Virus record (IMG/VR): IMGVR_UViG_3300047095_000666
Location: 33,886-97,885 of that record
DNA length: 64,000 nt
Strand: one strand, 5' to 3'
Origin: a virus
Of this stretch, positions 7,184 to 62,502 are shown in pieces. Numbering within the stretch: position 1 is the stretch's first letter; the number at the start of each line of letters is the position of its first letter. The position numbers were made by a program, and so were the translations under genes. Below the pieces are notes generated by a model, which saw only the letters and a program-made list of their open reading frames with translations, had not been told where the DNA came from and made no database searches.

Positions 7184-7195
7184 AACAGCTAATTA
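7184..7195 (+). promoter_or_regulatory. Late-type promoter motif AACA-GCTAAT-TA
   Basis: AACW-N6-TA family; heads the tail-fibre cluster. Confidence 0.65.
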
Positions 7196-7214
7196 ATTTC
7201 TTTAGTCTTTCCGG

Positions 7215-7679
7215 ATGACGATACAAATGGGAAAGTTTTATCACACTGTATCTCAATCGTCGACGGGTAGCACAGCAACCGGGACGAACACAGCGGACCC
7301 GATCATCGAACTCAATGGCGACGTGCTCGGCTACGGCCCAGCATCAGAGGTGTTGACATCGATTGCTCCCACTGGAGTTGTACCCGGCATCTATTCTGCC
7401 GTCGAGGTAAATGAGAAAGGACAAGTCGTAAAGGGGTACACGGCGGAGGTCAACATGGGCCTTGCCATACGGAAATTCAATTTCGTCTACCCCGCTCAGA
7501 GATGGAGAGTTGTTCACAACCTGGGAACGACAGATTTCACAGAATCCATCAAAAACAGCGAAGGGCTGAAGCTTTTCGCAAACATCAGAATAGTTGATAG
7601 CAACGAATTCTGGGTCGAACTAACGGAACCGGAAGTCGGATCGGTTGTTGTGACATTCGACTTGTCGTCTGCGGCATGA
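7215..7679 (+). CDS. Putative tail-fibre-associated protein
   Basis: GDVLG...GVVPGIYSAVEVNEKGQV fibre-type segment plus a C-terminal W-x-V-x-HNLG module. Confidence 0.7.
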   Translation: MTIQMGKFYHTVSQSSTGSTATGTNTADPIIELNGDVLGYGPASEVLTSIAPTGVVPGIYSAVEVNEKGQVVKGYTAEVNMGLAIRKFNFVYPAQRWRVVHNLGTTDFTESIKNSEGLKLFANIRIVDSNEFWVELTEPEVGSVVVTFDLSSAA

Positions 7680-7722
7680 TCGCAGCTGTCAATGACGTTC
7701 CCTAACCTAAAAAGGATCCATC

Positions 7723-9531
7723 ATGGCATTTCCGAAGTTTCATGGCATTACCCTTGCCAATAACAGCTGGATCGAGAATGCTCACTTTGAGCGCCTCGCA
7801 GCTGACCCCGTGCCTGCCGCTGCTGGCCGTGTCTGGTTCAACACTACCGAGAAGAAGCTGAAGTTCTCCAGCCTCGACGCCTCCGGCGCCGTGGTTACTT
7901 ATGCCTTCACGAACACTGTTGAGCTGGCCGCTGCTCTGGCAGAAGCCAAGGCTTACTCCGACCAGATCAAGCAAGAACTGCTCGGCGGTATCCCGCCCGA
8001 GACGCTGGACACGATCACTGAGATCGCAGGTGCTCTCCAAAACAATCCCGACATCGTCAACGTCCTGAAGCAATTCTCGACGGATGCCGTTGAAGCCGCC
8101 AAGCAAGCCATCCGTGGCGAAGTTTCCGGTGCCTTCGACACTCTGGAAGAGATCGAAGTTGCGCTGAACCGCATCGATGGTGCTGACACCGTCGAAGGTT
8201 CCTTCCGCAAGGCCGTTCTGGACGAAGCGAATGCTCGCTCCTCCGGCGACCAGAACCTTCAGAACCAGATCGGCGCACCGGTCTCCCTGACCACCGACGC
8301 CAAGGGCAACCTCGTTGCCGCGATCAACGAACTCGACGCTCACGTCGATGCTGAAGTTGCTCGTGCTACCGCTGCTGAAACCGCTCTGGATGACCGTGTT
8401 ACCACGGTCGAAGGTCAAGTCAACGGCAAGATCGGCGACCTGACCACCCTGCACACCGACGAGAAGGGCACCATCGTTGGCGCTCTGAACGAAGTGCAGG
8501 ACGAGCTGGACGCTGAAGTCGCTGCCCGCACTTCCGCTGTCGCTGCCGAGAAGACTCGCGCTGAAGCTGCTGAAGCTCAGCTGACCACCGATCTGGCTGC
8601 TGAAGTTGCTCGTGCTACCGCTGCCGAGCAACAACTGACCTCCGATCTGGCCACTGAAGTCGCTGCCCGCACTTCCGCTGTCGCTGCCGAGAAGACTCGC
8701 GCTGAAGCTGCTGAAGCTCAGCTGACCACCGATCTGGCTGCTGAAGTTGCTCGTGCTACCGCTGCCGAGCAGGCCGAAGCTGCTCGTGCCCAGTCCGCTG
8801 AGCAAACCCTGACCACCAACCTCGCCGCCGAGGTTTCCCGTGCTCAGGCTGCGGAACAGACCCTCACGACCAATCTGGCCGCTGAAGTCTCCCGCGCACA
8901 AGCTGCCGAGCAGGCCGAAGCCACCCGCGCTCAGTCTGCCGAAGCTCAGCTGACCACCGATCTGGCTGCTGAAGTCTCCAACCGTATCGCCGCTGTCGCT
9001 GCCGAGAAGACCCGCGCTGAAACCGCCGAGTCCGCTCTGCAAGCTGCCATCACCGCCGAAGCCAACCGTGCTCAAGGCGTCGAAGGCTCCCTGACCGCGC
9101 TGACCACGACTGCGAAGACCTCTCTGGTCGAGGCAATCAACGAGCTGGATTCCGATCTGGCGGCTGAAGTCTCTGCTCGCACCGCTGCGGTGGCCGCTGA
9201 GAAGACTCGTGCTGAAGCTGCTGAAGCTCAGCTCACGTCCGATCTGTCTGCCGAAGCTGCTGCTCGCGCTGCTGCCGACTCCGCTCTGAAGTCCGCGATC
9301 AACGGCCAGCACTTCACCTTCACCTCGCCGACTGCTGCTCTGTCGCACGTCATCAACCACGGCCTGAACTCCGAACACCTGCTGTTCTCCGTTCTCGTGG
9401 AAGGTGCCGACGGCAAGTTCCGCAACGACATCGTGCCGGTGGAAGAGATCGACTACAACAACTTCCGTATCGATCTGGCTGAAGCTCGCCGCGTCAAGGT
9501 CTCCGTCAAGTCCATGACTGCACTGGCCTGA
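7723..9531 (+). CDS. Long coiled-coil fibre/whisker-like virion protein
   Basis: PETLDTITEIAGALQNNPD fibre motif; many AExxRAxAAE 11/18-residue repeats; C-terminal HVINHGLNSE module; strong codon bias. Confidence 0.82.
   Translation: MAFPKFHGITLANNSWIENAHFERLAADPVPAAAGRVWFNTTEKKLKFSSLDASGAVVTYAFTNTVELAAALAEAKAYSDQIKQELLGGIPPETLDTITEIAGALQNNPDIVNVLKQFSTDAVEAAKQAIRGEVSGAFDTLEEIEVALNRIDGADTVEGSFRKAVLDEANARSSGDQNLQNQIGAPVSLTTDAKGNLVAAINELDAHVDAEVARATAAETALDDRVTTVEGQVNGKIGDLTTLHTDEKGTIVGALNEVQDELDAEVAARTSAVAAEKTRAEAAEAQLTTDLAAEVARATAAEQQLTSDLATEVAARTSAVAAEKTRAEAAEAQLTTDLAAEVARATAAEQAEAARAQSAEQTLTTNLAAEVSRAQAAEQTLTTNLAAEVSRAQAAEQAEATRAQSAEAQLTTDLAAEVSNRIAAVAAEKTRAETAESALQAAITAEANRAQGVEGSLTALTTTAKTSLVEAINELDSDLAAEVSARTAAVAAEKTRAEAAEAQLTSDLSAEAAARAAADSALKSAINGQHFTFTSPTAALSHVINHGLNSEHLLFSVLVEGADGKFRNDIVPVEEIDYNNFRIDLAEARRVKVSVKSMTALA
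8513..8771 (+). repeat. Exact 118-bp direct repeat (8513-8630 and 8654-8771), period 141 nt (47 aa)
   Basis: CTGAAGTCGCTGCCCGCACTTCC...CTACCGCTGCCGAGCA occurs twice; further degenerate copies to about 9260. Confidence 0.9.
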
Positions 9532-9540
9532 TGAATGAAA

Positions 9541-9575
9541 GGAGGATGGATCGCAAAGATCCATCCTCCCTTTCT
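9541..9575 (+). terminator. Intrinsic terminator
   Basis: GGAGGATGGATC-GCAAA-GATCCATCCTCC followed by CTTTCT. Confidence 0.7.
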
Positions 9576-9623
9576 GATTGAGCGCATACGCTGTTCGTGC
9601 CTAGAGCGTTATCGGTTCTCTAG

Positions 9624-9636
9624 AACTCTTTTATAG
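9624..9636 (+). promoter_or_regulatory. Late-type promoter motif AACT-CTTTTA-TAG
   Basis: AACW-N6-TA family; about 22 nt before ATG 9659. Confidence 0.55.
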
Positions 9637-9658
9637 AGTATTTCACAGGACCGAGCAA

Positions 9659-9955
9659 ATGCAAGATAACTATCTTGTGGTCTCAAACAAAGACCCGATG
9701 ATGATCGAGTCGTTCGAGCAAGTCATTGCGGAGATCGAGGGGAGCCTCTTCAACATGAGGTTTCTTTCGTCCGAGACGAATTTCGACGACCCAGATCAGA
9801 AAAAACGCTTCAAGGACAACGTAGTTCACCTGAAAAGGTTCTACGAGCGAGCAGAAAGGTTAGCACTCAATGAGCAGACGAATACACCCGGCACAAATGG
9901 AAGCCTGGATGCGAAAGCTCCAAAAAAGAATGTCAAAGTTCTTAAGAAACGCTAA
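9659..9955 (+). CDS. Hypothetical protein
   Basis: 98-aa ORF with AGGA RBS between fibre genes. Confidence 0.65.
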   Translation: MQDNYLVVSNKDPMMIESFEQVIAEIEGSLFNMRFLSSETNFDDPDQKKRFKDNVVHLKRFYERAERLALNEQTNTPGTNGSLDAKAPKKNVKVLKKR

Positions 9956-10085
9956 TGCCTCCAACGAGGAAAAGCTGGAGTTCATCCGGCTTCAGTACGG
10001 CCTTCTAGATATCGTCGTCAAGGCTCTCGACGGAAAGGTGTATTTCGTTGGATGCTCTCAGCCATCGCATCACGACGACAACTGA
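9930..10085 (+). CDS. Possible small protein (51 aa)
   Basis: MSKFLRNANAS...; fills the gap before the 920-aa fibre. Confidence 0.4.
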   Translation: MSKFLRNANASNEEKLEFIRLQYGLLDIVVKALDGKVYFVGCSQPSHHDDN

Positions 10086-10100
10086 CTTTAGGATCCAATC

Positions 10101-12863
10101 ATGGCAGAAATTTCCATTCTCAGTAATGCGAGAATCGTAGGTGCCTTGCAGTTCGATAAGGACTTCTCCGAGTTCCCCTCGAACCCCAAGGTGGGCACCC
10201 TTGTCATCAAGAACAAGTGTCTCTACGGTTACATCAAGATCGGCGACCTCGAAACGTGGTATCCGTTTGCGTCTCGCACCAATCACTACATCCACGCCCA
10301 AGGCGCGGCCTCCGTCACTTGGACCGTCAACCACGGTCTGAACTCAGAAGACATCTGGTATCAGGTGAAGGACGCATCCGGAATGATCGTGTCCCCCGCT
10401 GGCTTCCAAGTCATCGACGGTAACACTTTGCAGTTCACCTTCACCGAAGCGATCACCGGCACGGTTCTTGTCGTGTCTACCTCTTCGATGGACGTCCCGA
10501 GCCTGCGCACTTCCCTGCTGGAAATCGGCTCCGACGTGCGCATCGACACTGGCGGAATGACGATCTCTGGCGAGCGCGTGCTGACTCGTGCCACTATGAC
10601 GATCGGCGATGGTTCTATCGCTCGCTTCACGGTGAACGACCTCCAGCGCCTGAACCTCGTTTCCGGCGTTGGCGTTAGCCTCGACTTCAATGCTGAGGCC
10701 AAGTCGATCACCTTCAACGCGCCGGGTCTTAGCGTCACTCCTGAGTACGTCGCGAACGAGATCTCCGGCGTCAAGGGCGGCGTCAACACTAGCCTGAACA
10801 CTCTGGCGAAGATTGCTGCTGCGATCAACAACGATGCCAGCTTCGGCGCTAACGTCGAAGCCGAGATCGCGACGAAGCTGAACGCTTCCGAGGTGGTCAG
10901 CAGCGTCCTGCCCAGCAAGGTCTTGCGCCTCGACGCCACCGGCAAGTTGCCTGCCGACATCACCGGCAACGCGGCGTCTGCAACTTCCGTCAACTGGTCG
11001 GGCGTACAGAATCGTCCGACGACTCTTGGCGGTTACGGTATCACTGACGCCTTCCCCGCCGCCGGTCTGCAATCCGGAACGGTCAACGTTGGAACCATCG
11101 TTGTCAATGGTGCGATTCTCCCGAATCCCACTAGCTCCATCGACATTGGTTCCCCGACCGCTCGTTTCAAGACGATCTTCGTCGACGAAGCCAAGCTGAG
11201 CACGAACACCCTGTACATCGGTGACACTCCGATTCTGGGCACGTCTCAGGACACCATCAACATCAAGGCCGACCCCGGTCAGTCGATCAACATGCAGACT
11301 CGCGGCACCGGCTCCACGCTGGTGACCTCCGAGAAGGGCGTGACTGTTTCGACCAGCGGTATGAACGCCGACGTCGTGATCCAAGCCACCGGCAGCGGAT
11401 CCAAGGTTCGCTTCGGCGCTCCTCAGACGATCGACTTCACCGCACCCGAGGTAGTGACTTATGGCAACAGCACCGTCAGCGGAAACCATACCGTTGGCGG
11501 CACCCTGACCGTTACCGGCAACCTCGTGGTGAACGGTGCTCAGACCACCATCAACGCTACCACCGTCACGACGAAGGACAACATCATCGTCGTGAACTCT
11601 GGTGAACTCGGCACCGGCGTCACTTCCGGTAAGGCGGGTATCCAAGTTGACCGTGGCGACGAAGCTGATTACCAGATCATCTTCGACGAGACTGACGACA
11701 TGTTCAAGGTCGGCATGGTCGGCCAGCTGGAAGTCATTGCGTCTCGTCCTTGGGCGAACAGCACCTTCTCGGCTCTCGGCCACGGACACGTTGACGCCAA
11801 CGGCTCCAGCTCCGGCTTCATGAGCGCAGCCAACTTCACGAAGCTGGCTGGCATTGAGAACAACGCAAACTACTACGTTCATCCGACTGGCGACGGCAAC
11901 CTGCACGTACCGGCGACTGGCACCACCAACAACGGTAAGGTGCTGAAGTCCGGCATGACTGCTGGTTCCGCTGCTTGGGCGTTCGTAGACTGGTCCGAGA
12001 TCACCTCGAAGCCGTCCACTTTTGCGCCTTCTGCCCACCAGCATGGGGATGCAGACATCACCGACGTAGCGTGGACGAAGGTCACCGGCAAGCCCACGAC
12101 TCTGGCGGGCTACGGCATCACCGATGCTGTGAACGTGTCGGAAGTTGTCACGGCAGCTACGCCCAACAAGATCCTCAAGCTGAACTCGGTCGGCAAGCTC
12201 GGCACCGGCATCACTGGTGATGCTGACGGCAACGCCGGGACCGCAACGAAGCTACTGAACGCTCGTACCATTTCCGTCTCCGGAGATGCTACTGGCTCGG
12301 CGTCTTTCGACGGCTCTGCTAACAGCAACATCGCAATCGCTCTGGCGAACGTCGTCACGGCTGGTACTGGTACGAAGGTCACCTACAACGCCAAGGGTCT
12401 TGTCACTGGTTCGACTTCTCTCGCAGCATCCGACATCCCGTCTCTGGACTGGACGAAGATTACTACCGGCAAGCCGACCACTCTGGCAGGCTACGGCATC
12501 ACCGACGCGCTGAACACCTCCAGCAATTCCGTGCTGCCTTTGGCGAACGCAGACATTACGAGCGCGTCCCTGACGACCTCCACCACGACTGCTAACCAAG
12601 TCGTTGACAGCTTCAGCTCTACTGCCTACCGTACCGCAAAGTACCTGATTCAGGCCACTTCCGGTACTTCCTACCACGCCTGCGAGGCTCTGGTCATCCA
12701 CAACGGGACCACCGCTTCTCTGGTCGTGTACGGCGACGTCATGACTGGCTCCAGTCTGATGACCGTCGATGCCGACGTTTCTGGCGGCAACGTGCGTCTT
12801 CTCGCCACTCCGGCGAACGCGGCAACCACGATCAAGGTCGTGCGTACGTCCATCGACGCGTAA
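10101..12863 (+). CDS. Tail fibre protein (920 aa)
   Basis: Repeated W..IT.KPTTLAGYGITDA, GNAGTATKLLNARTISVSGDATGSASFDGSAN, LTVTGNLVVNG, SLNTLAKIAAAINND. Confidence 0.9.
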   Translation: MAEISILSNARIVGALQFDKDFSEFPSNPKVGTLVIKNKCLYGYIKIGDLETWYPFASRTNHYIHAQGAASVTWTVNHGLNSEDIWYQVKDASGMIVSPAGFQVIDGNTLQFTFTEAITGTVLVVSTSSMDVPSLRTSLLEIGSDVRIDTGGMTISGERVLTRATMTIGDGSIARFTVNDLQRLNLVSGVGVSLDFNAEAKSITFNAPGLSVTPEYVANEISGVKGGVNTSLNTLAKIAAAINNDASFGANVEAEIATKLNASEVVSSVLPSKVLRLDATGKLPADITGNAASATSVNWSGVQNRPTTLGGYGITDAFPAAGLQSGTVNVGTIVVNGAILPNPTSSIDIGSPTARFKTIFVDEAKLSTNTLYIGDTPILGTSQDTINIKADPGQSINMQTRGTGSTLVTSEKGVTVSTSGMNADVVIQATGSGSKVRFGAPQTIDFTAPEVVTYGNSTVSGNHTVGGTLTVTGNLVVNGAQTTINATTVTTKDNIIVVNSGELGTGVTSGKAGIQVDRGDEADYQIIFDETDDMFKVGMVGQLEVIASRPWANSTFSALGHGHVDANGSSSGFMSAANFTKLAGIENNANYYVHPTGDGNLHVPATGTTNNGKVLKSGMTAGSAAWAFVDWSEITSKPSTFAPSAHQHGDADITDVAWTKVTGKPTTLAGYGITDAVNVSEVVTAATPNKILKLNSVGKLGTGITGDADGNAGTATKLLNARTISVSGDATGSASFDGSANSNIAIALANVVTAGTGTKVTYNAKGLVTGSTSLAASDIPSLDWTKITTGKPTTLAGYGITDALNTSSNSVLPLANADITSASLTTSTTTANQVVDSFSSTAYRTAKYLIQATSGTSYHACEALVIHNGTTASLVVYGDVMTGSSLMTVDADVSGGNVRLLATPANAATTIKVVRTSIDA

Positions 12864-12871
12864 AACTGAGC

Positions 12872-12907
12872 GGGCGGAATCTTCGGGTTCCGCCCCTCTT
12901 TCATTTC
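12872..12907 (+). terminator. Intrinsic terminator
   Basis: GGGCGGAA-TCTTCGGG-TTCCGCCC then CTCTTTCATTT. Confidence 0.6.
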
Positions 12908-12933
12908 TGTAACTGCCTAGAGGATAGTGAATC

Positions 12934-14709: not shown

Positions 14710-14722
14710 AACAATGGTTTAG
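14710..14722 (+). promoter_or_regulatory. Late-type promoter motif AACA-ATGGTT-TAG
   Basis: AACW-N6-TA family. Confidence 0.65.
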
Positions 14723-17492: not shown

Positions 17493-17505
17493 AACAAGCA
17501 ATTAG
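17493..17505 (+). promoter_or_regulatory. Late-type promoter motif AACA-AGCAAT-TAG
   Basis: AACW-N6-TA family. Confidence 0.65.
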
Positions 17506-23070: not shown

Positions 23071-23083
23071 AACTAGAGGATAG
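23071..23083 (+). promoter_or_regulatory. Late-type promoter motif AACT-AGAGGA-TAG
   Basis: About 24 nt upstream of the spike gene. Confidence 0.6.
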
Positions 23084-24868: not shown

Positions 24869-24881
24869 AACTGGTATATAG
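24869..24881 (+). promoter_or_regulatory. Late-type promoter motif AACT-GGTATA-TAG
   Basis: About 23 nt upstream of ATG 24905. Confidence 0.6.
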
Positions 24882-28362: not shown

Positions 28363-28403
28363 GCTTCATCGAACCGTCGAAACGCCGATACAGAGAATGG
28401 GGT

Positions 28404-28415
28404 AACAGCATGTTA
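28404..28415 (+). promoter_or_regulatory. Late-type promoter motif AACA-GCATGT-TA
   Basis: About 35 nt upstream of the RNAP beta-prime gene. Confidence 0.45.
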
Positions 28416-28450: not shown

Positions 28451-29809
28451 ATGCTGAAAGTCAGACCACGCGACATCCAGAGTGACTTCAACGAGAAGGC
28501 GCTCGTGACCAGTCACGAAGCCATCGACAACGACTCTCGCTTCACGCAGAACGGCGTGTTCTCCGAGAAGATCTTCGGTTCCCTCTCCAACGGGATCGAC
28601 TACGCCTGCGACTGCGGGAAGTACCAAGGCGCGTTCAACCTCGGCTACAAGTGCGAGTGCTGCGGCTCGAAGGTGGTGTTCAAGGGTCTGCAGCTGGCCA
28701 AGGAGGGCTGGATCGACCTCCGCCACACCATCATCCATCCTGTGTTTTACCGCTATCTGAAGAAGATCATCGGCGGCACGACGCTTCAGGAGATCCTCAA
28801 CTACCGGGTCAAGATCCACGTCAACGGCACCCCGATCGAGCCTCCGATGGAAGCTCCGTTCAAGGGAATCGGCATGGTCCGGTTCATCGAGAACATGGAC
28901 GACGTCGTGGACTTCTTCATCAATCGCAAGAAGGACACGGCAAAGTCGAAGAAGAAGGACTGGCAGTTCTTCCTCGCCAACGCCGACATTGCTTTCATCG
29001 ACAAGTTCCCGATCATCAACAGCCGTCTGCGCCCCGGCAGCGTGATCAACGGCGAGTTCCAGTTCGACGAGATCAACAACCTGTACAACGCGCTGATCCG
29101 CAACTCGAACACTCTGGAGAGCATGACGGAGATCGAGGCCACGGACGCCAACAACCTGCCTCTGATCTACAAGAACCAGATGCTGGCAAACGAGGTCTTC
29201 GACACCATCCTCGAAACACTATCCAACAAGGAAGGCTTCATCCGGAACAGCCTGATCGGCTCCCGCCTGAACCTCTCTGCGCGGAACGTGATCACGCCGC
29301 TCTCCGGCAAGTACAGCATGGACGACTGCGTCATGCCCTACAAGACGGCGATCGAGCTGATGAAACCGCTGATCATCCGCAAGCTCTGCAAGATCAAGCG
29401 GATCACGGTCCATCAGGCGCTCAAGGTCTGGTTCGACGCCACGCTGAAGTACAACAAGCTCGTCCACACGATCATGCGGGACATCGCCAAGAACGAGAAC
29501 GTCAAGGTGCTCCTGAACCGCAACCCGACGATCAACGTCGGATCGATCCTCCTCCTGAACATCGCCGATGTGAAGGAAGACGTCACGGACGTAACGTTCT
29601 CCATCTCCAACTTGGTGCTGCCTTGCCTCGCAGCTGACTACGACGGCGACGTTCTCAACATCGTCCTTATCGTCTCGAAGCGGTTCGTGGACATGTTCGA
29701 GCCCTTCCAGCCCAGCAATCTCGTCATCGATTGCGACAGCGGGGAGTTCAACTCTTCCTTCACGCCGTTCAAGGACATCCAAGTCGGCATTCAGTCTCTG
29801 CTGAACTGA
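28451..29809 (+). CDS. Phage multisubunit RNA polymerase beta-prime N-terminal/catalytic subunit (putative non-virion RNAP)
   Basis: GVFSEKIFG, Zn ribbon CDCGKY...CECCG, RLRP, SARNVITP, LLNRNPT, catalytic AADYDGD. Confidence 0.93.
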   Translation: MLKVRPRDIQSDFNEKALVTSHEAIDNDSRFTQNGVFSEKIFGSLSNGIDYACDCGKYQGAFNLGYKCECCGSKVVFKGLQLAKEGWIDLRHTIIHPVFYRYLKKIIGGTTLQEILNYRVKIHVNGTPIEPPMEAPFKGIGMVRFIENMDDVVDFFINRKKDTAKSKKKDWQFFLANADIAFIDKFPIINSRLRPGSVINGEFQFDEINNLYNALIRNSNTLESMTEIEATDANNLPLIYKNQMLANEVFDTILETLSNKEGFIRNSLIGSRLNLSARNVITPLSGKYSMDDCVMPYKTAIELMKPLIIRKLCKIKRITVHQALKVWFDATLKYNKLVHTIMRDIAKNENVKVLLNRNPTINVGSILLLNIADVKEDVTDVTFSISNLVLPCLAADYDGDVLNIVLIVSKRFVDMFEPFQPSNLVIDCDSGEFNSSFTPFKDIQVGIQSLLN

Positions 29810-30484: not shown

Positions 30485-30497
30485 CTATTAAAAAGTT
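30485..30497 (-). promoter_or_regulatory. Late-type promoter motif AACT-TTTTAA-TAG
   Basis: About 20 nt upstream of ATG 30464. Confidence 0.55.
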
Positions 30498-30505: not shown

Positions 30506-30517
30506 AACAACGAAATA
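30506..30517 (+). promoter_or_regulatory. Late-type promoter motif AACA-ACGAAA-TA
   Basis: Back-to-back with the minus-strand motif; about 24 nt before ATG 30542. Confidence 0.55.
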
Positions 30518-31859: not shown

Positions 31860-31872
31860 AACAATGTTTTAG
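31860..31872 (+). promoter_or_regulatory. Late-type promoter motif AACA-ATGTTT-TAG
   Basis: Near-identical context to 14710 (TAACAATG.TTTAGTTAG). Confidence 0.7.
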
Positions 31873-34644: not shown

Positions 34645-34657
34645 AACAGCGCCTTAG
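34645..34657 (+). promoter_or_regulatory. Late-type promoter motif AACA-GCGCCT-TAG
   Basis: Heads the PAAR operon. Confidence 0.65.
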
Positions 34658-36213: not shown

Positions 36214-38235
36214 TCAGACGATGATGTCCTCGATCTGGTCCAGCTGGTCCGACTCAAGCGTGATGCCCATGCCAGCGAAGAAGGAGCGGATCACCTGTGC
36301 TGCGTTGGTGATCATCTTCTCGCTCTTGCCGTCGCCCGCAACGCTGTCAATCCGGTCAGGATCGACGCGAAGCAGCTTCTGGAGCAGATTGCGCCGCTCG
36401 ATGTTGTGCGAGGAGTAGTGACGGAGGAAGTTGATCACACCACTCGCGCCGCCTTCTTGGTTCGCCAGCAGCAGCATGTTGAACAGCTCCTGCTCGCCGA
36501 AGCGGATGGGGCTGTTGTTGTGCGGAGCGGTTCCCTTCTTGTACATCTCGTTCGACTTGAACGGGACGTTGAGCAGGCTCACCTGACCGGCGGACCGGGC
36601 GGAGAACTTACCGATCGCCTCGTGGCGGAGCTTGATGAAGTAGAGCGACCCGAACACGAGCGGCTGCTCGATCCCGTCGAACTTCAGCTTCTCCACGCCG
36701 AAGTGGTTGTACAGCTCGATCATCTTCTCGGGGTTTGCGTTCTCGAAGAATGGAGGCTGATGGATCAGCAGACCATTCTCCCGGACGTCGGCGACGTATG
36801 CTGCGATGGCCTTGGCGTCGGTGCCGAGTCTCTCTTTCAGGAACTCGCCTTGGCCGGTGCCGATGATCTGGTAGAATTCCAGAATGTCGGACCAGAGACT
36901 GGCGACTCCCTTCTTGTCGTCCGGGTACTTCTTAACGATCTCGTCGGCGATGAAGTTCAGCTCGTGCTCGTACAGCTGCGAGATGTTGCAGCGACCGACG
37001 ACGCCGAGACTGTTCAGCACCACGTCAGGGATTTCCCCGGTGTCGGAAACGCGGGGCATCTCCTCATCGGGAAGGATCTTGGAGATGACGCCTTTGTTGC
37101 CTACCCGCCCGGTGATCTTGGAGCCGACCTTGAGGGGGACGGTTTCGCGGATCTTGAAGCGGATGATCGTGCCTTCGAACTCCGACTTGTCGTAGCTGAA
37201 TTTCTTGCCAGACAGGTAGTCGGTCGCCTTCTGGTACAGGAACCCGCAGTCGTCGCGGAGAGCGTACCCTTCAGCCTTGAAGCTCTCGATCGTCTCCTTG
37301 ATATCTTTGTACAGGTCCCGGCGAGAATCCAGCAGCGTCTTGATCGGCGCGTTGTACTCTTGCTTCAGCTCGTCTTCCGACAGGTTGGAGAAGATCTCGA
37401 TCGACTCGACCACGCCGTCAAAGTAGAACAGCGTGTCGTTGTTGACGTCCATCTGGCGGTCGTTCTCCTTGAAGTCCGTGAGGACCGTGGAGTAGTTGAT
37501 CCGGCGACGGGAACAGAGCACGCCGTTCTCGATCTCTTCGCCGACGTTCGGGAATGGCTTGTAGTTCGTCTTGTCGCCGTACAGGTTGACCAGAACGTCG
37601 TTGTTGTTTAGGGACACGATGGCCTCGTGGACCGCAGTGTGCCCGAGCTTCTTGGAACCCGTCTCGCTGATGATGATGCCGTCCTCGAAGGTCAGACCAT
37701 CCTTTGCTAGGAAGATCGTCTTCAGGTTGACGCCGTACTTCAGGTTCAGGTGCTCGTCGTACATGTTGTTGTGCGAGATGAGCGTCCCGGCCTCGACTTC
37801 GTCGCCCGGCTCGGTCTCCGGCATGACGAAGTTGTTGGCATAACCGTACGACTCGGTAAGACGAGTGGACGACGTGTGGCACACCACGTCCACAGTCTGA
37901 TCGTCGTACGCGAAGAACAGGTAGCGTTCGTTCTCGCCGAGCGCAATCTCGGCGATAAATGTGGCTTTCTCCTTGAGGGATACGTAACCCATCCCCTGAG
38001 AGTATTTGCCGATCTGGTTCTCGAAGCGAGTGAAGACTCGCGGCACTTCCCCACGGTCCAGCGTCAGAAACTGAGCGAGGTGGGAGATGAACATGTTGAG
38101 TCGACCGCCGTCGCACTTGTTGACGTTGGGCGTCAGCAGGTCTTCCCCGAGGAAGTAGTGCTTCGCCCTGCCGTCTTCGCGGACGTACTGGTCAGACTGA
38201 GTATCCGACTTTTTGACTGCTTTTTTCTTCGCCAT
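36214..38235 (-). CDS. Phage RNA polymerase beta subunit, C-terminal half (putative non-virion RNAP)
   Basis: RLNM, YGVNL, FEDGIIISE, VGSKITGRVGNKGVIS, PDVVLNSLGVVGRCN, YFIKLRH, ARS, RFGEQE. Confidence 0.94.
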   Translation of the reverse strand: MAKKKAVKKSDTQSDQYVREDGRAKHYFLGEDLLTPNVNKCDGGRLNMFISHLAQFLTLDRGEVPRVFTRFENQIGKYSQGMGYVSLKEKATFIAEIALGENERYLFFAYDDQTVDVVCHTSSTRLTESYGYANNFVMPETEPGDEVEAGTLISHNNMYDEHLNLKYGVNLKTIFLAKDGLTFEDGIIISETGSKKLGHTAVHEAIVSLNNNDVLVNLYGDKTNYKPFPNVGEEIENGVLCSRRRINYSTVLTDFKENDRQMDVNNDTLFYFDGVVESIEIFSNLSEDELKQEYNAPIKTLLDSRRDLYKDIKETIESFKAEGYALRDDCGFLYQKATDYLSGKKFSYDKSEFEGTIIRFKIRETVPLKVGSKITGRVGNKGVISKILPDEEMPRVSDTGEIPDVVLNSLGVVGRCNISQLYEHELNFIADEIVKKYPDDKKGVASLWSDILEFYQIIGTGQGEFLKERLGTDAKAIAAYVADVRENGLLIHQPPFFENANPEKMIELYNHFGVEKLKFDGIEQPLVFGSLYFIKLRHEAIGKFSARSAGQVSLLNVPFKSNEMYKKGTAPHNNSPIRFGEQELFNMLLLANQEGGASGVINFLRHYSSHNIERRNLLQKLLRVDPDRIDSVAGDGKSEKMITNAAQVIRSFFAGMGITLESDQLDQIEDIIV

Positions 38236-38542: not shown

Positions 38543-38594
38543 TTTCTTATCGGACGCCTATGCGAGAGGATCATGGACCCGTAGGCCCATGATC

Positions 38595-38603
38595 ATCATA
38601 TAT
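38595..38603 (-). promoter_or_regulatory. Early-type promoter motif (G)ATATATGAT
   Basis: Immediately after the recombinase stop; heads the RNAP beta unit. Confidence 0.6.
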
Positions 38604-43799: not shown

Positions 43800-45257
43800 T
43801 CAGTAACGCTCCAGGAAGGAAAGGATTTCCTGGATGATGCCGCGCTGGTTGCCTTCGGTGTCGATGAACTTCTGGAGGTCTTCTTCCTCGTCTCGGAACC
43901 CCTTGACGCAGGTGAACTCCGTATTCATAATATCTCCGATAAAGGAGATTAGCATCTTGTTTTCTGCGAGCTTTTCCTTGACGAGCGGGAACCGGTTCAG
44001 CAGGGCGCGGTACGAACGGGATTGCAGGACTTCTCCGATCAGCTTGCCCCGATTGAAGCTCTTCTTGTTCTCCTTCGGCTCGGTGGAGGAGCCGATCATG
44101 GCGGCGAGGCTCTTGTAGTTCTTCTCGATGAGGAACTGACGGGTGATCATCAGCAACCAGATGTACTCCTCCCGGTTGCAGAGCGTCACGTTGATGCGGT
44201 CCTTGCCGTTGACGTAGTAGTCGATGAGGCGCATCTGTACCTGATTCGGAGCGATGTTCTCGGCGAAGTACTCGTGTTCTTCCTCGGAGAAGCGAATCTT
44301 GTGCTTGTCAATGAAGTTCCGAATCGCTTCCTTCTCGATGACGTAGGACATCTCGTTTGCGTTGACCAGACGCATTTCCATCCGGGTGAACGGGTTGATC
44401 CCTGTATCGTTGCCCTCGGTCTTGATCTGAGAGATCGGCTTGAAGGTGATCTTGATGTTCTGAGTGAAGGTGTACATCACCTGCTGCTTGATCACGACGT
44501 GCAGGAACGACACGACGGAGCGGTTGATATCCAGCTTCGGGATCGTGTCGCGGATGATCTTGCGGTTCAGGTCAATGATCAGCAGCTGGTCGTTGACAGC
44601 GATGTTCTTCAGGTAGTCCCACATCACGCGGTCAGAGTACAGCGTGTTCTGCACCGAGGAAGTGATGAAGCGGTTGATCTTGGACGGGAGGTCCACGGTC
44701 TCGCCTTCCTCGTCCACGCGGAAGACCTTGAAGATCTCCCCGAAGATCCGCACGGTCAGGTCCTGCTCCTTCTTGATGTCAAACTTCTCCATGAAGGCGC
44801 AGATCAGCGGCACCGTGAGACGGCACATGAACGACACGCAGATCAGCAGTTTGGCGTAGGAGTCCTTGAACTGCAGTTCTTCTTCGCCGTTGCGGGTCTC
44901 GATGGTGATCGTGTACTCCTCACTCACCTTGTCCCTGATGACGTGTTGCAGGGTGTCGTCGGAGATGACGTGCTCCTTGATGATATCGATCAGCTGGAGC
45001 TCGATCTCGTCGCGCTCGCCTTCTTCGATCTGGTCGATCATGATGCGAGCGGTGAGGTACTTCTCGGAGAAGTCCGGGTGGATCCGGAAGACGTACTTCA
45101 TGTCGTCGATCACGCGGTCCATGATCGAGAGGTAAACGCGCTTGCGGTGCAACGGGTAGTAGTTGTAGGTTGTGTCGTCCTCCAGATCGAAGATCTCGTT
45201 GAAGTCGATGTTGAACCCTTTACCTTCGACGGAAAACAACTTCTCTATGTGCGGCAT
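43800..45257 (-). CDS. 485-aa helical protein, candidate sigma-like promoter-specificity subunit
   Basis: The CDS is secure. Function inferred only from size, helical composition and position two genes from the chaperonin (as AR9 gp226 relative to gp228). Confidence 0.5.
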   Translation of the reverse strand: MPHIEKLFSVEGKGFNIDFNEIFDLEDDTTYNYYPLHRKRVYLSIMDRVIDDMKYVFRIHPDFSEKYLTARIMIDQIEEGERDEIELQLIDIIKEHVISDDTLQHVIRDKVSEEYTITIETRNGEEELQFKDSYAKLLICVSFMCRLTVPLICAFMEKFDIKKEQDLTVRIFGEIFKVFRVDEEGETVDLPSKINRFITSSVQNTLYSDRVMWDYLKNIAVNDQLLIIDLNRKIIRDTIPKLDINRSVVSFLHVVIKQQVMYTFTQNIKITFKPISQIKTEGNDTGINPFTRMEMRLVNANEMSYVIEKEAIRNFIDKHKIRFSEEEHEYFAENIAPNQVQMRLIDYYVNGKDRINVTLCNREEYIWLLMITRQFLIEKNYKSLAAMIGSSTEPKENKKSFNRGKLIGEVLQSRSYRALLNRFPLVKEKLAENKMLISFIGDIMNTEFTCVKGFRDEEEDLQKFIDTEGNQRGIIQEILSFLERY

Positions 45258-49304: not shown

Positions 49305-49317
49305 CTAAGTGACTGTT
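49305..49317 (-). promoter_or_regulatory. Late-type promoter motif AACA-GTCACT-TAG
   Basis: Heads the gp26-like/chaperonin unit. Confidence 0.65.
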
Positions 49318-49372
49318 TCAGTTCCTCGCGATATGCCCGTCTGCTCGCATACGAATTTTGTTCAGAGACACG

Positions 49373-49409
49373 AATTGTCCCTAAGCCACCAAGAGCTTAG
49401 GGACAATTT
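49373..49409 (-). terminator. Hairpin/terminator
   Basis: AATTGTCCCTAAGC-CACCAAGA-GCTTAGGGACAATT directly after the gp25-like stop. Confidence 0.6.
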
Positions 49410-49832: not shown

Positions 49833-49834
49833 GA

Positions 49835-50284: not shown

Positions 50285-50293
50285 GTCGGTTCC

Positions 50294-50791: not shown

Positions 50792-50809
50792 CTTGCTTTG
50801 TCCTTTTAG

Positions 50810-51573: not shown

Positions 51574-51586
51574 CTACTACTTTGTT
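51574..51586 (-). promoter_or_regulatory. Late-type promoter motif AACA-AAGTAG-TAG
   Basis: AACW-N6-TA family. Confidence 0.6.
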
Positions 51587-51603: not shown

Positions 51604-51615
51604 AACATAAGAATA
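51604..51615 (+). promoter_or_regulatory. Late-type promoter motif AACA-TAAGAA-TA
   Basis: Divergent partner; heads the spanin/baseplate unit; AT-rich context raises the chance of a random match. Confidence 0.5.
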
Positions 51616-55400: not shown

Positions 55401-55719
55401 GAACGACAAAGCTGTCAGAACGAGTAAGATGAACCCGGTGGAAACTGTTCTCTTCGGCGACAACCAGTCCTTCGGTACCAGAAGAAATGCGGCTGATAAA
55501 TTTCATGCTCTAGACAGAATCTTTATCAGCTTCTCAGAAGCAAAACACCTGACCATGTCATCCCAGCCTCAAAAGCTGACCGACGCGACCAAGTCAAGAG
55601 GCAATAAAACGCTGGAGGAAACGGTATCCTTTAGCGAAAACTTGACAGGAAAGTCGTCCGTGGCCAACCATGATCGGAGAGCCATTTTCGATCGTTTCGT
55701 CATAACTGTGCACCAATAA
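52444..55719 (+). CDS. Large baseplate wedge-like structural protein (1091 aa)
   Basis: LIRHKGTDQVFIDILDIF (wedge-type KGT motif), FKAYTV, C-terminal periodic D-x3-F-x-D repeats. Confidence 0.72.
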   Translation: MSTNSSIEALTRREVNDLMEHCRKIVVKDQDTADALETSESMIEATRYLEVYYKVDKYPYHDIVRSAITSILTDATATGTEVSAEQVRSIISNDQNLDTASKSESIQITYSLQFPSGSITIDVVDKNVENIRQYYLDNYVDRNSYYRSLQQLGIPAWKSRLAEDFEIIQEPSVIGNALLRSFGPAYSKSRKYFTTVMYTKAFAKDMVGTVNYETVNYYKAYCKITICLMTIVDLLNNRLQFPLDISYIDEYSMNQLLYSFGFTEFTKFPLYYRKAIALKINTLIRHKGTDQVFIDILDIFDFQGVNIIKYYLTKHETSNEKKTLDAIEVAPKFVGHSVRINSLQEAIKRESTREYGFDNMVQNDPYWEASKEEVTAQHFDFLPTKYFSIEGDFQMWKEVMNISYFVSMIRKLKRDHSLRAHLSLHASEISKGEVFIDELILAAQILVCDFYKIEDIIHFDQESVYKIYSFNDKDDSPLNTSLFGQDVLTKNSYANTSYVLETVSDYPTIERDELFTIYNHDIQVYNNFLAFQKIRDASGAIVMTYQNFKKYKALYESKFLANYNLSEYRGFSKYSEYLQFKCNADLYSYVDEAMLTDDQDIKRQKITYILSALKEYAYTLNIPFDRMMSDLIIEYIMKTVNVFKAYTVTMKDFRIIYRWDEGNFLHLFDSETKHAKFVWDSHVRNKNPQKIILSMGTVTNSTYQEPLPNDMLFSDSVNRFQKKDVYADRYRYKERYTFHGFFNWRDRLLYRDKSTFKGRFSWSDLLNFGDNLFERAKYSLSDKQKFKDRINYDTAPGVDYWYRDRCKLVDVSVQKSKFANKDTANFGDNSMWNVRYKVNEATKLHDFSMFASRIKKSDKGNLHDGYYMWFPLMVMPVSDSMIANDTVRSMAARRSIVQQRHHFADRLSPGVSSQTRVDHTFSFKADSTVLKTLLPSADTLSFGDSQLQRQKSSAKDRMRAFDRLDLELVPGSTAACGILKDTMSFKNDKAVRTSKMNPVETVLFGDNQSFGTRRNAADKFHALDRIFISFSEAKHLTMSSQPQKLTDATKSRGNKTLEETVSFSENLTGKSSVANHDRRAIFDRFVITVHQ

Positions 55720-55730
55720 CAGGTGTTTAG
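55718..55730 (+). promoter_or_regulatory. Late-type promoter motif AACA-GGTGTT-TAG
   Basis: Overlaps the upstream stop codon. Confidence 0.65.
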
Positions 55731-55764: not shown

Positions 55765-56481
55765 ATGAGCGATATCAAGTATCTCAACTTCGAAGAGCAG
55801 CTGCTTTTCAAAGACAACAAGGTCGATGGCCGTTCCGAACCCCGCCTCGGCGGCTTCGTCGTGGTCAAGGACGCCGAGTCCGGCAAGATCCTGATGGCCA
55901 AGAAGAACCTCGTCGTCCGTCGCGGTCGCGAGATGACCCTGCGCCAGATCTTCCGCATCCCCGGCTCCGTCACCGGCGAAACCGAAGCAACCCTGAAGGA
56001 CAAGAGCATCCTCCTGTTCGGCATTGGCTCTGGCGGCGCACCGAACAACGATCCGTTCAACCCGTTCGCTCCGACCCCGGCTGACACCGACCTCAGCGCG
56101 GCCTTCCCCTTCCGCGTGAGCTCCGCTGCCAGCCCCATCCCGACCGCAGAAGCTGGTCTGTTCACCGACAGCCGCGCTGGCACTGGCGGCACGACCGAGT
56201 GGTACAAGAAGACCTTCACCAACGGCCACGGCGAGATCACTGTCAACCCGGCGACCGACGAGACCTTCGTGAAGCTGGCCCTCCAGATCACCAAGGATGA
56301 CTCTCGCGACCGCTTCGTGAACGAGTTGGCCCTGTACTGGGCGAAGTACAACGCCTCCGGTGCCGACCAGAACGCCAAGTACTCCGAGTACACGATGTTC
56401 TCCCGCATCACCTTCCTTACCGAGCCGCTGCCTTCGAACACGAACAAAGCCTTGGACATAGACTATTACGTTTACCTGTAA
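55765..56481 (+). CDS. Baseplate/tail-fibre attachment protein
   Basis: Start at MSDIKY; KNLVVRRGRE, FGIGSGG, VNELALY, MFSRITF, IDYYVY. Confidence 0.75.
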   Translation: MSDIKYLNFEEQLLFKDNKVDGRSEPRLGGFVVVKDAESGKILMAKKNLVVRRGREMTLRQIFRIPGSVTGETEATLKDKSILLFGIGSGGAPNNDPFNPFAPTPADTDLSAAFPFRVSSAASPIPTAEAGLFTDSRAGTGGTTEWYKKTFTNGHGEITVNPATDETFVKLALQITKDDSRDRFVNELALYWAKYNASGADQNAKYSEYTMFSRITFLTEPLPSNTNKALDIDYYVYL

Positions 56482-56951: not shown

Positions 56952-57128
56952 TCAGATCTCATTCTTCCTGCGACGATACTCACGTCGCATTTGAATGATG
57001 TGGATTGCAGACAACATGAGGAGCCCGCCGCAGATCTTGGCGACCGCCCCGCTAGTTGATATCCCGGCAAAGCTCATGACTAGGTAAATGTACGGCAAGA
57101 GCTCGTACAACCACTTTGGGAGATGCAT
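56952..57128 (-). CDS. Small 2-TM membrane protein (58 aa), paralog of 56761-56937
   Basis: MHLPKWLYELLPYIYLVMSFAGISTSGAVAKICGGLLMLSAIHIIQMRREYRRRKNEI; TGATG coupling to the RNAP gene. Confidence 0.72.
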   Translation of the reverse strand: MHLPKWLYELLPYIYLVMSFAGISTSGAVAKICGGLLMLSAIHIIQMRREYRRRKNEI

Positions 57129-58462
57129 CAGATTGCCTCCATGAAGTCTTCAAGGTCGAACTTCTCGGTCTTCACGGACAGCGAGTGGAAAGCCTTGAGG
57201 GAAGCGTTCAGCAGCGCGGAGCCGATGTTCGCCGACGTCAGGCCGATGTTCTTAATTCCGAGCTTGCCTAGCATCTCACCGGCGCACTTGTTGCAAATCT
57301 TCGGATTTTGACAGAAGAACGGGGTACGCATCTTCACCGTCTTGCCGAGGTACTTCGACTTGTTGTCTCGGTCCAGAAGGACCAGCTTGTCTCCCTCCGC
57401 CACGTAGCGGAAGAGATAGTCTCCGTAGTTCTTGTCGTCCAAATCGACCTTGATCGTATAAGGAGTCTTACAGTCAGTGCCCGGAGCATCGGCGACGACG
57501 GACTGGAAACCGGCGTAGAACTGCTTGACCTTGTAGCCACCCTGACGGGTGTCGATGGCACGACCAAGGGAACCCTGGACTGCGATGTCGCCTGCGATTC
57601 CGACTTCGTCCTTCGATACGCCTTCAACCAGAGAGGAGGTCGCGATGGAGTACTGGGTGGGATCGTCTGACTTCGCCACCACCCCACGGGCGACTGCGGT
57701 GATCTTGTAGTTGCCAGAGAAGGAGCCGTTCACACCGGAGTCGAAGATGATCTTCCCGGAGGAGCCCTTCTCGTCGAGGATCTTCGACGCCTGAGACAAG
57801 ATCTTCGGCTCAATCACGTTGTTGTAAGCAACAACGTCGTTTCGGTCGATGATGTCCTTGTGCTCCTTGAACACGTCAGCGCGGATCTTCTTAATCTCCT
57901 TGGTGGGAGACATAGACAGGATGTCCATAGAGGGGTTGACGTACGGCACCATCGTGAACCCGAGCCAGTTCAGGTTATCGATGAACTGGTTCATGGCTTG
58001 GTACGTGATCTTCTCGTCGATAAACAGCTGGGACATCTCGGAGTAGATCTTGTCCATGTCCTTGGCTGTCAGCGTGAAGTTCTTGTACGTGATCAGCCCC
58101 TTGATATCGACATCGTACCGGAACTGCTGGTGGCTGCCTTGGGAACCGATCACATCTTTGGCCAAATCTCGGATCTTTTGCTCTCTGTCGGTAACGACAG
58201 CCTGCATGTCCTTAACGTTGTAAAGGGCCAGATTTACGATGAAGCGACCGAAGGTGGTCTCCTTACCGTAGAGCTCCCCGGCGTTCTTGAACTTGCAGAA
58301 CTCCGAGTCGGCCTCCTTGAGCATCTTCTCGTCCAGCACCAGCTTGGTGTTCGGAGGGATGTAAGACGAAGACTCTTCGTTGAACACGACGTGCAATAGC
58401 TGCCGAGTGATATTTGCACCTTTGATCTCGAAGATCTTCTTCATAAACTCTTCTTGAGCCAT
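57128..58462 (-). CDS. Phage RNA polymerase beta-prime C-terminal subunit (putative virion RNAP, phiKZ gp80-like)
   Basis: Start at MAQEEF; TTFGRFIVN, SG, bridge-helix-like TRQGGYKVK, DCKT, MRTPFFC...ICNKCAG, NIGL, trigger-loop-like LKAFH. Confidence 0.88.
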   Translation of the reverse strand: MAQEEFMKKIFEIKGANITRQLLHVVFNEESSSYIPPNTKLVLDEKMLKEADSEFCKFKNAGELYGKETTFGRFIVNLALYNVKDMQAVVTDREQKIRDLAKDVIGSQGSHQQFRYDVDIKGLITYKNFTLTAKDMDKIYSEMSQLFIDEKITYQAMNQFIDNLNWLGFTMVPYVNPSMDILSMSPTKEIKKIRADVFKEHKDIIDRNDVVAYNNVIEPKILSQASKILDEKGSSGKIIFDSGVNGSFSGNYKITAVARGVVAKSDDPTQYSIATSSLVEGVSKDEVGIAGDIAVQGSLGRAIDTRQGGYKVKQFYAGFQSVVADAPGTDCKTPYTIKVDLDDKNYGDYLFRYVAEGDKLVLLDRDNKSKYLGKTVKMRTPFFCQNPKICNKCAGEMLGKLGIKNIGLTSANIGSALLNASLKAFHSLSVKTEKFDLEDFMEAI

Positions 58463-58482: not shown

Positions 58483-58495
58483 CTATGCAGCTGTT
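58483..58495 (-). promoter_or_regulatory. Late-type promoter motif AACA-GCTGCA-TAG
   Basis: About 20 nt upstream of ATG 58462. Confidence 0.65.
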
Positions 58496-61290: not shown

Positions 61291-61306
61291 CGTCTATCTT
61301 CCTCTC

Positions 61307-62464
61307 TCACCTACATTTGTGTAAAACGATCATGTACACCAAGTAGGAAAACAGGACGTTCCGGTACTGCATCTTGGTGGCGGTGCGGTTGGTCTGCACG
61401 TACTTGGTGCAGTGCTTCATCAGCATGTCGTCGAGGATCTTCTTCAGCTTCAGCAGGTCCTCGTTGGTGGTGTTGCTCACACTAATCTGGCGCAGAGCCG
61501 TAACCGCGAAGTCCTTGGAGCACACCCTCTCGAAGATGGTGGGATCCCCCTCCCCGACGACGTTGAACAGCAGCTTCATCATCCCGATCACGGTGTCCGG
61601 GGACTCCTTGGTGCGGATCTCGTTGAGCGTCTGGTAGACGGTGGTGAAGGGCAGCTGGTTTCGCTCGCTGACGATCCGGACGAGACCCATGTTGACCTTC
61701 TGGCTGACGAAGTCGTGGGTGACTCCGTCTGCGAGAGAGTGGATCGTGTCGGAGAGATTCCCCTTGTCCACCACGTCTCCCTCGTCGTCGAATGACTTCT
61801 CGGTGTTAAGATAGTTCTTCTCGTCTCGGTTCCGGTAGAACTCTTCAGCAATGGCGTTCATGATCTTGCCAATTCTGTTTTCCATTTGCGGCACATAGAT
61901 GAGATAGACTTCGTCTTCTCCCTTACCGAGCTGCTGCTTGTAGGTGTCGTGGGAGGTCAGAACAGTGTCTTTCACCACGTTGTAGTTGTTCTGGAGCTTC
62001 TTGTACTTGAACTTGTCGCTCAAGTTGTTTATCGTATATGCCATGATGTTCGGGTTCGGCTCGAAGGGGAAGGACCTCCGCTGCCTTGAACTGTAGAACT
62101 TCATCGCCAGATACATGATCACGAGCTCCTTCTCGGTGTCTTTCTTCTGGAGCATGAGCTCCCTGATGCAGAGGACTGAGAGGATAACGAACGGGGTGTT
62201 CAGCAGCTTCCACGACTTCTCGATGATGGACACCTTGGCCAACTCCAGCTCCACCTCCTCCGGCTGGATGTCGGTGAACTGGAAGATGACCTCTTGGTCT
62301 TGGTTGCCGAAGATGAGGCGCTTGCCGGGGTTCGAGTCGAAGATGGCGTCGTGATTCTTGTCGAAGTACCTGTGCATGCCAGCGACTGCCGCCTTGAGGC
62401 GGGCCGGGTTCGACACGGCGTCCTTGATTCTCTTTCCGAACGCGTTGAGTAGGATGGTTGACAT
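61307..62464 (-). CDS. Hypothetical late protein (385 aa)
   Basis: Start set at MSTILL downstream of a late motif. Confidence 0.75.
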   Translation of the reverse strand: MSTILLNAFGKRIKDAVSNPARLKAAVAGMHRYFDKNHDAIFDSNPGKRLIFGNQDQEVIFQFTDIQPEEVELELAKVSIIEKSWKLLNTPFVILSVLCIRELMLQKKDTEKELVIMYLAMKFYSSRQRRSFPFEPNPNIMAYTINNLSDKFKYKKLQNNYNVVKDTVLTSHDTYKQQLGKGEDEVYLIYVPQMENRIGKIMNAIAEEFYRNRDEKNYLNTEKSFDDEGDVVDKGNLSDTIHSLADGVTHDFVSQKVNMGLVRIVSERNQLPFTTVYQTLNEIRTKESPDTVIGMMKLLFNVVGEGDPTIFERVCSKDFAVTALRQISVSNTTNEDLLKLKKILDDMLMKHCTKYVQTNRTATKMQYRNVLFSYLVYMIVLHKCR

Positions 62465-62489
62465 CTCTGGATTCCCAATGGTTAGATGA

Positions 62490-62502
62490 CTAAATAGCTG
62501 TT
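62490..62502 (-). promoter_or_regulatory. Late-type promoter motif AACA-GCTATT-TAG
   Basis: Heads the unit containing the peptidase and the beta C-terminal subunit. Confidence 0.65.

Follow-up and report, generated by a model that had tools for sequence, protein, structure and literature searches.

The short sequence AACA-N6-TA(G), in which the fourth base may be T, is very probably the late promoter of an uncultured jumbo phage, read by a non-virion RNA polymerase that the phage itself encodes. It was examined in a 64,000-nucleotide (nt) stretch of DNA, the window, which comprises bases 33886-97885 of a linear 97,885-bp IMG/VR virus record (IMGVR_UViG_3300047095_000666), and the whole record was analysed with it as contig G000, estimated by CheckV to be ~37% complete. 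The motif is a real feature of this DNA, specific in its spacing and orientation, conserved before orthologous genes and accompanied by genes for the cognate enzyme. The sequence places the contig in the AR9/phiR1-37 group, as part of the genome of a jumbo phage from the environment. In AR9 the late consensus is A(-11)ACA-N6-T(A/G)(+1) (PMC5312081), and the purified non-virion polymerase with its gp226 subunit reads template 3'-UUGU-N6-AU-5' and requires deoxyuridine (dU) at -11 and -10 (PMC5449584). The likeness to AR9 late promoters proposed in the first-pass annotation is borne out in sequence, spacing, orientation and distance to the gene, and the phage encodes a gp226-like protein and split polymerase subunits.

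Placement, spacing and conservation of the late motif

All 17 sites listed in the first-pass annotation are real. Its 12 plus-strand coordinates are exact, while the five on the minus strand are each one base too low, their corrected starts being 30486, 49306, 51575, 58484 and 62491. Every one of the 17 lies between genes and faces a gene on the same strand, as had been claimed of nearly all of them, although the distance from motif end to start codon spans 19-73 nt instead of 20-60 nt. Most sites had been said to end in TAG and to precede virion, lysis or virion-polymerase genes; TAG is found in 13 of 17, and most downstream genes belong to the tail-fibre-like, virion, baseplate, spanin and virion-polymerase classes. 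The listed set omits three sites, of which 28403 (-) and 63856 (-) are intergenic and 7581 (+) is a probable promoter inside a coding region.

Genes can be called reliably from codon statistics in this contig because they have a very strong bias at the third codon position (GC ~0.8), and 106 curated genes cover 88.5% of it, leaving 11.5% of bases non-coding. For AACW-N6-TA (W, A or T), 20 of the 25 matches in the window are intergenic, and in the contig 27 of 39 fall within the non-coding bases (binomial P=4e-17). Matches wholly within the intergenic DNA of the contig number 26, against 7.6±2.7 when those segments were shuffled 300 times with dinucleotides preserved (the highest shuffled count being 16). 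The enrichment over AT-matched shuffled controls that the first-pass annotation had called for is thus present, and these low shuffled counts answer the objection that intergenic DNA is merely AT-rich. The longer form AACWN6TAG occurs 15 times in the window against 6.4±2.6 expected, a number reached in 0 of 100 shuffles, and all 22 AACW-N6-TAG matches in the contig are intergenic or within ~130 nt of the start of the next gene.

The spacing is equally selective. Of the 27 intergenic contig sites, 23 lie within 100 nt of a same-strand start, and when sites at most 100 nt upstream of such starts were counted with the spacer varied and composition kept constant, AACW gave 23 sites at N6 and 2-7 at N2-N5 and N7-N11; with TAG as the second element the contig holds 18 sites at N6 and 0-3 elsewhere. 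Altering positions 1-3 of AACA, or the TA, abolishes the N6 enrichment. TA is used and TG is not, there being 0 TG sites in the contig and 15 in AR9. Inside coding regions the N6 count is low (12), as are those of the in-phase spacers N3 (15) and N9 (20), and no depletion is claimed.

Metagenomic relatives were found with the gp226-like protein as probe. Without gene calls, raw motif counts in 20-kb loci of relatives carried no information; the comparison therefore used whole genomes with called genes: G001 (95 kb, 50% GC, gp226 homolog 67% identical to that of the window), G002 (complete, 263,413 bp with direct terminal repeats, 55% GC, gp226 homolog 53% identical), phiR1-37 and AR9. Under the spacer test all of them, like G000, have a peak at N6. 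AR9, the positive control, has 81 sites of AACA-N6-T[AG] at N6 against 7-39 at other spacers; for AACW-N6-TA the counts are 51 against 8-25 in G002 and 23 against 2-10 in G001, and phiR1-37 has 46 oriented AACA-N6-TAG sites against 0-3. Expressed as the N6 count over the mean of the four spacers N4, N5, N7 and N8, AACA-N6-TA gives 17/1.25 in G000, 18/1.25 in G001, 41/5.25 in G002, 52/7.5 in phiR1-37 and 66/14.25 in AR9.

The same genes carry the motif. A motif before a gene of the window predicts one before its ortholog, both for G000 and G001 ([[11,1],[1,26]], Fisher p=8e-8) and for G000 and G002 (p=3e-5). In aligned upstream regions AACA and TA(G) are held and the spacer and flanks have diverged, the classic pattern of a footprint. 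In each of the five genomes the median gap between motif and start codon falls within 30-36 nt. The flavour of the start region nevertheless differs from that of AR9: G stands at +2 in 76% of G000 sites, in 88% of those of phiR1-37 and in 58-88% across the GC-rich phages and phiR1-37, compared with 18% in AR9, and in this same set G is rare at +3 and there are hardly any TG starts. For phiR1-37 the transcriptome study saw no new conserved sequences and reported no late consensus (PMC4848604), an absence on which the AR9 authors remarked (PMC5312081); a search of the literature found no later paper that gives one.

The AACT variants appear to be functional. All five AACT-N6-TAG sites of the contig are in promoter position, with 0-1 at other spacers, and the variant before 24905-25639 is the same before its orthologs in G001 and G002. 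In AR9 the polymerase has almost no U/T preference at template -8 and contacts this position weakly (PMC9209446), and AACT looks like a tolerated variant there. This agrees with the relaxed specificity that had been suggested for these sites; nothing supports the second temporal class offered beside it. Genome-wide, neither G002 nor phiR1-37 nor AR9 is enriched for AACT.

Some observations weigh against a late promoter. The bare motif AACW-N6-TA is not over-represented window-wide, where 25 matches compare with 24.05±4.75 in shuffles; since it occurs at chance frequency, the case rests on its placement and not on its count. Seven of the 27 intergenic contig sites are AACT, a form no commoner than background in AR9. 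Parts of the relatives are found in three wastewater runs labelled RNA-Seq, stored there as contigs that are probably DNA, and start sites are unreadable in them.

Polymerase subunits and the two promoter classes

The window encodes a 485-aa gp226-like protein (43800..45257, -), the putative promoter-specificity subunit of the non-virion polymerase, which aligns with AR9 gp226 over 447 residues at 28% identity in BLASTP (E 2e-43) and lies in the syntenic order primase / gp226 / ORF (open reading frame) / GroEL. A PDB profile match of a gp226-family alignment to 7s01_A was not counted as independent evidence, as that alignment contains the AR9 sequence; the pairwise BLASTP result stands in its place. 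The non-virion polymerase is further represented by βC (36214..38235, -; 37% identity to AR9) and by β'N (28451..29809, +), which among solved structures is closest to the AR9 non-virion β' chain 7s01_d (E 2e-72, compared with 1e-24 to phiKZ), and the virion polymerase by β'C (57128..58462, -; 32% identity to AR9). The non-virion βN and β'C are missing from the 37%-complete contig and came to light in the complete relative G002 only. More widely, tblastn against the AR9 genome gives extensive homology and local synteny, as in the minus-strand block 42761-51523 (primase / gp226 / ORF / GroEL / gp230 / baseplate wedge / endonuclease).

In the AR9 structure the -10 uracil is wedged between I207 of gp226 and R363 of βN, and V206 of gp226 leaves no room for a 5-methyl group, such that the V206G enzyme accepts thymine (PMC9209446). 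The 2.1bis helix that carries this valine reads SDRVMWDYLKN in the window and SDVVIWTYLKN in AR9: V206 corresponds to V211, Y210 is kept and I207 is replaced by M. The position equivalent to V206 is V in 15 of 17 homologs and I in 2 of 17, never G or A, and is V also in phiR1-37, G001, G003 and G004. The βN of G002 matches that of phiR1-37 at two positions, with R363 kept and K375 replaced by R. The gp226 tree has phiR1-37, the GC-rich groups and the protein of the window together in one clade (support 95/99), and AR9 lies outside it.

By analogy with AR9, the non-virion multisubunit polymerase, composed of split β and β' subunits and the gp226-like, sigma-like subunit, would read AACA-N6-TA(G) through template contacts with 3'-UUGU-5' at -11 to -8 and 3'-AU-5' at -1/+1. 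Transcription would then start at the A of TA and leaders would be ~35 nt long. Both the start site and the pairing of enzyme and promoter are inferred from the AR9 system.

A second promoter class accompanies the late one. A k-mer search of upstream regions gave the motif ATATATNAT-N5-TG; of the 14 copies of ATATATNAT in the contig 13 are intergenic, G stands at +7 in all and T at +6 in 13. Strict matches in the window number 8 against 0 in 100 shuffles, in G002 26 of 26 matches are intergenic, and the motif is also present in phiR1-37 and AR9. The AR9 early consensus, read by the virion polymerase, is AAATATATATTAT-N6-G (PMC5312081), and the window likewise has an extended AT-rich, ATATATTAT-like element with a G 6 nt downstream. 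On this sequence evidence ATATATNAT-N5-TG is an AR9-type early promoter, which the injected virion polymerase would use. The copy ATATATGAT-N5-TG at 38588..38603 (-) precedes the operon with non-virion βC, and the others in the window are at 1907-1922 (-), 2863 (-), 7128 (-), 23028 (-), 28302 (+), 28347 (-), 46140 (-) and 58777 (-); those at 46140, 23028 and 7128 precede the operons with gp226-like protein and primase, with a helicase and with an ATPase/VWA protein, respectively. Genes 28451-29809 and 27517-28287 have both an early-type and a late motif, and genes of this kind may correspond to the 'continuously expressed' class of AR9.

Probable deoxyuridine in the genome and alternative readings

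The genome probably carries dU instead of deoxythymidine (dT). Four lines of sequence evidence favour dU over a thymine-tolerant polymerase: the conserved valine, the absence of ThyA, ThyX and dUTPase, the Dtt-like/Dcd-like module of G002 and the placement on the tree. Searches with PF00303, PF02511 and PF00692 found no ThyA, ThyX or dUTPase in G000-G004, three of which are complete, and gave matches in control genomes. In phiR1-37 the dU pathway comprises g103, a dCTP deaminase (Dcd), and g100, a 358-aa Ham1-family protein that is a dTTP pyrophosphatase (Dtt) (PMC12697855). In G002 the order Ham1-like / g101-like / non-virion β'C / deaminase is that found around Dtt and Dcd in phiR1-37 (in G002 the deaminase gene is at 78247-78816 and the Ham1-like gene at 82521-83552, both on the minus strand). 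The Ham1-like protein of G002 (343 aa) is 26% identical over nearly its full length (E 2e-11), with its Pfam match in the same first half of the profile, and the deaminase is 34% identical to phiR1-37 Dcd (E 4e-23) and has the HAE and PCxxC motifs. A Ham1-like ORF of ~356 aa is also found in G003, a complete AT-rich genome that groups with phiR1-37 in the gp226 tree. As AR9 falls outside and phiR1-37 inside the gp226 clade that holds the protein of the window, two proven dU phages bracket the lineage.

Several points count against dU. Dcd, Dtt, βN and β'C are not in the 37%-complete contig, and the dU pathway is drawn from G002, a relative whose gp226 is 53% identical to that of the window. 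The absence of thymidylate synthase and dUTPase is consistent with dU-DNA and not specific to it, as it also fits a phage that uses host dTTP. The gp226 valine could be conserved for structural reasons, and I207, F261 and Y263 of AR9 gp226 are replaced by M, Q and I in the protein of the window; in AR9, F261 and Y263 contact DNA through the main chain. In G000 and G002 tblastn found no homolog of the uracil-glycosylase inhibitor or of the AR9-type dTMP nucleotidase, which is uninformative for such small or fast-evolving proteins. The rest of the genome was sought among viral contigs with P0023, the closest Dtt-like homolog, as query, which gave no match, and in one metagenome scan, where all matches were short and unrelated.

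It is unlikely that the same promoter and enzyme family operate on a genome with ordinary thymine or another T derivative, with a polymerase that tolerates a 5-methyl group at -11/-10. The case for dU comes from sequence and no gene of its pathway is on the contig of the window; neighbours of the uracil pocket differ from AR9, at I207→M in gp226 and at K375→R in the βN of G002; and the AACT variants suggest a somewhat different recognition. The thymine-excluding valine is kept, however, and AR9 needs V206G to accept T (PMC9209446); the same K→R replacement occurs in βN of phiR1-37, whose DNA is proven to contain dU (PMC12697855); G002 keeps the Dtt-like/Dcd-like module; the lack of a ThyA homolog argues against bases derived from 5-hydroxymethyl-dU; and the clade lies between two dU phages on the tree. 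That this GC-rich freshwater clade retains the AR9-type promoter and the 'uracil-selective' valine, yet has ordinary thymine or a different pyrimidine in its DNA, is likewise rather improbable. If it were so, template-strand recognition would not be bound to dU by its nature, and another purpose would fall to the Ham1-like and deaminase genes.

Recognition by a host RNA polymerase redirected by a sigma-like or accessory factor of the phage is very improbable. Small sigma-like or helix-turn-helix proteins are annotated in AR9-group phages, AR9 among them, but the motif lacks a -35/-10 architecture, does not differ from the element that the purified AR9 non-virion polymerase with gp226 reads in vitro (PMC5449584) and coincides with gp226 homologs in five genomes. 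It is also very improbable that the motif marks places where RNA is processed or cleaved, or that it merely reflects the higher AT content of intergenic DNA (48.7% GC against 54.6% in the contig overall). The chance-level window count would suit such a reading; against it stand a signal that neither other spacers nor AT-matched shuffles reproduce, a strict orientation, conservation before orthologs and the initiation that the same element drives in vitro in AR9 (PMC5449584).

Individual sites, genome context and significance

From the left of the window, a late core AACAGCTAATTA at 7184..7195 (+) stands 19 nt before ORF 7215-7679, and inside this ORF the probable internal promoter AACATCAGAATAG at 7581..7593 (+), one of only two AACW-N6-TAG matches of the contig within coding sequence, lies 130 nt before the tail-fibre-like gene 7723-9531. 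The AACT variant with TAG at 9624..9636 (+) precedes 9659-9955 and the tail-fibre-like genes 10101-14682; AACAATGGTTTAG at 14710..14722 (+) precedes 14782-15930, and AACAAGCAATTAG at 17493..17505 (+) the 602-aa gene 17535-19343. Two further AACT variants are found at 23071..23083 (+), before the baseplate/tail-fibre-like gene 23156-23926 whose G001 and phiR1-37 orthologs also have a motif, and at 24869..24881 (+), before 24905-25639. Between divergent genes, the palindromic double site AACAGCATGTTA at 28403..28415 can be read as a late core in both directions, with the non-virion β'N gene 35 nt downstream on the plus strand and 27517-28287 at 115 nt downstream on the minus strand; the trailing G is absent in either reading and both flanking genes have an early-type motif of their own.

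A divergent pair follows, consisting of the AACT variant with TAG at 30486..30497 (-) before 29856-30464 and the site at 30506..30517 (+) before the AR9 gp250-like gene 30542-31849, which is kept before the G001, G002 and AR9 orthologs. The site at 31860..31872 (+) precedes 31906-33603 and the virion structural gene 33616-34569 and is kept in G001, G002 and phiR1-37, as is that at 49306..49317 (-) before the AR9 gp230-like gene 48096-49256; the site at 34645..34657 (+) precedes 34679-35113. At 51575..51586 (-) a site kept in G001, G002, phiR1-37 and AR9 precedes 50810-51523 and the baseplate-wedge-like unit, and at 51604..51615 (+) another precedes a spanin-like pair and the 1091-aa virion protein 52444-55719. 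The site at 55718..55730 (+) overlaps the stop codon of this last gene, precedes the virion structural gene 55765-56481 and is kept in G001, G002 and phiR1-37. On the minus strand, 58484..58495 stands before the virion polymerase β'C gene 57128-58462 (kept in G001, G002 and AR9), 62491..62502 before the AR9 gp052-like gene 61307-62464 (kept in all four relatives) and 63856..63867, an AACT variant with TAG, before the small ORF 63600-63815. Upstream of the window, at contig positions 17667 (+) and 18325 (-), perfect AACA-N6-TAG sites are found in a 738-nt gap, with no called gene at most 100 nt downstream.

The spanin-like genes adjoin each other. In the product of 51670-52110 (+) an N-terminal membrane helix is combined with a coiled coil, and there is a weak match to Rz-like proteins; that of 52107-52454 (+) is a lipoprotein by its signal peptide, which includes an LVGC lipobox. 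This adjacent pair fits the Gram-negative host proposed in the first-pass annotation, and the host is probably Gram-negative. Three consecutive large genes in 7723-14682 (+), of 602, 920 and 582 aa, match tail-fibre PHROGs and have repeated domains in common (phrog_7389, phrog_5181, phrog_33377), and a role as a host-recognition cassette is probable. The HNH endonuclease-like gene at 766-1719 (-), of 317 aa, is 37% identical to an intron-encoded HNH protein of AR9, has atypical codon usage (third-position GC 0.40 versus ~0.8) and lies directly upstream of the gene for the topoisomerase II large subunit, with an early-type motif 194 nt upstream of it within ORF 1729-2055. It is likely to be a free-standing homing endonuclease. 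Scans of the window for tRNA genes and Rfam families found nothing.

The record comes from a lake-water metagenome, and relatives occur in wastewater. Contigs 88-99% identical to parts of window positions 28000-36000 are present in wastewater libraries of another study, indicating that the lineage is not confined to the source lake. A megablast search of 8 kb against a phage collection gave no nucleotide match; among phages on record it has relatives at the protein level only, the nearest isolates being Yersinia phage phiR1-37, Bacillus phages PBS1 and AR9 and Staphylococcus jumbo phages. The aquatic jumbo lineage 'Moraphage' was considered as an identity and rejected; those phages are without RNA polymerase genes and have a dUTPase (PMC12619734).

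Among the systems known, AR9 resembles that of the window in the motif itself (AACA, a spacer of exactly 6 nt and T-purine where transcription presumably starts), in the distance of ~30-36 nt to start codons and the association with late and structural genes, in the gp226-like subunit with its 2.1bis helix valine and the split β/β' genes, and in the co-existing early motif ATATATNAT-N6-G and dual-promoter genes. It differs in GC content (27.8%, compared with 54.6% here) and in the start-site flavour described above (TG at 15 sites, fewer G at +2); AACT is tolerated here, the proteins are 21-44% identical, the host is probably Gram-negative, and the start site and dU dependence are assigned by analogy. 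The closest isolated relative is phiR1-37 (gp226 31%, βC 43% identical), which has a Gram-negative host and the AACA-N6-TAG flavour and has in common with G002 the order Ham1-type Dtt / structural gene / β'C / Dcd; its GC content is 32.5%, and its dU and its Dcd and Dtt activities have been demonstrated experimentally (PMC12697855), whereas for the phage of the window they are predicted. Phage phiKZ also has a multisubunit polymerase with a sigma-like fifth subunit (gp68) and a very short start-site consensus, but its late motif is TATG without AACA at -11, its DNA contains thymine and it forms a phage nucleus.

No new mechanism is presented here: promoter type, enzyme and the link to dU are already known from AR9. 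What appears to be new is the occurrence of AR9-type late promoters in an uncultured GC-rich aquatic lineage whose host is probably Gram-negative, their TAG flavour and the presence of the same late motif in phiR1-37. A programme of two polymerases and two promoters so far characterised only in an AT-rich Bacillus phage is thereby extended to a GC-rich lineage of lake water and wastewater and to phiR1-37, in which late promoters had been described as unidentifiable. There is hardly any background to this short motif in a GC-rich genome, and late transcription units can be mapped almost completely from the sequence alone. Markers for the annotation of such phages in metagenomes are available in the gp226 valine, the Ham1-type Dtt and Dcd. 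If the dU assignment holds, these would be the first GC-rich jumbo phages with dU-DNA and a natural test of how far uracil-dependent recognition of the template strand is conserved.

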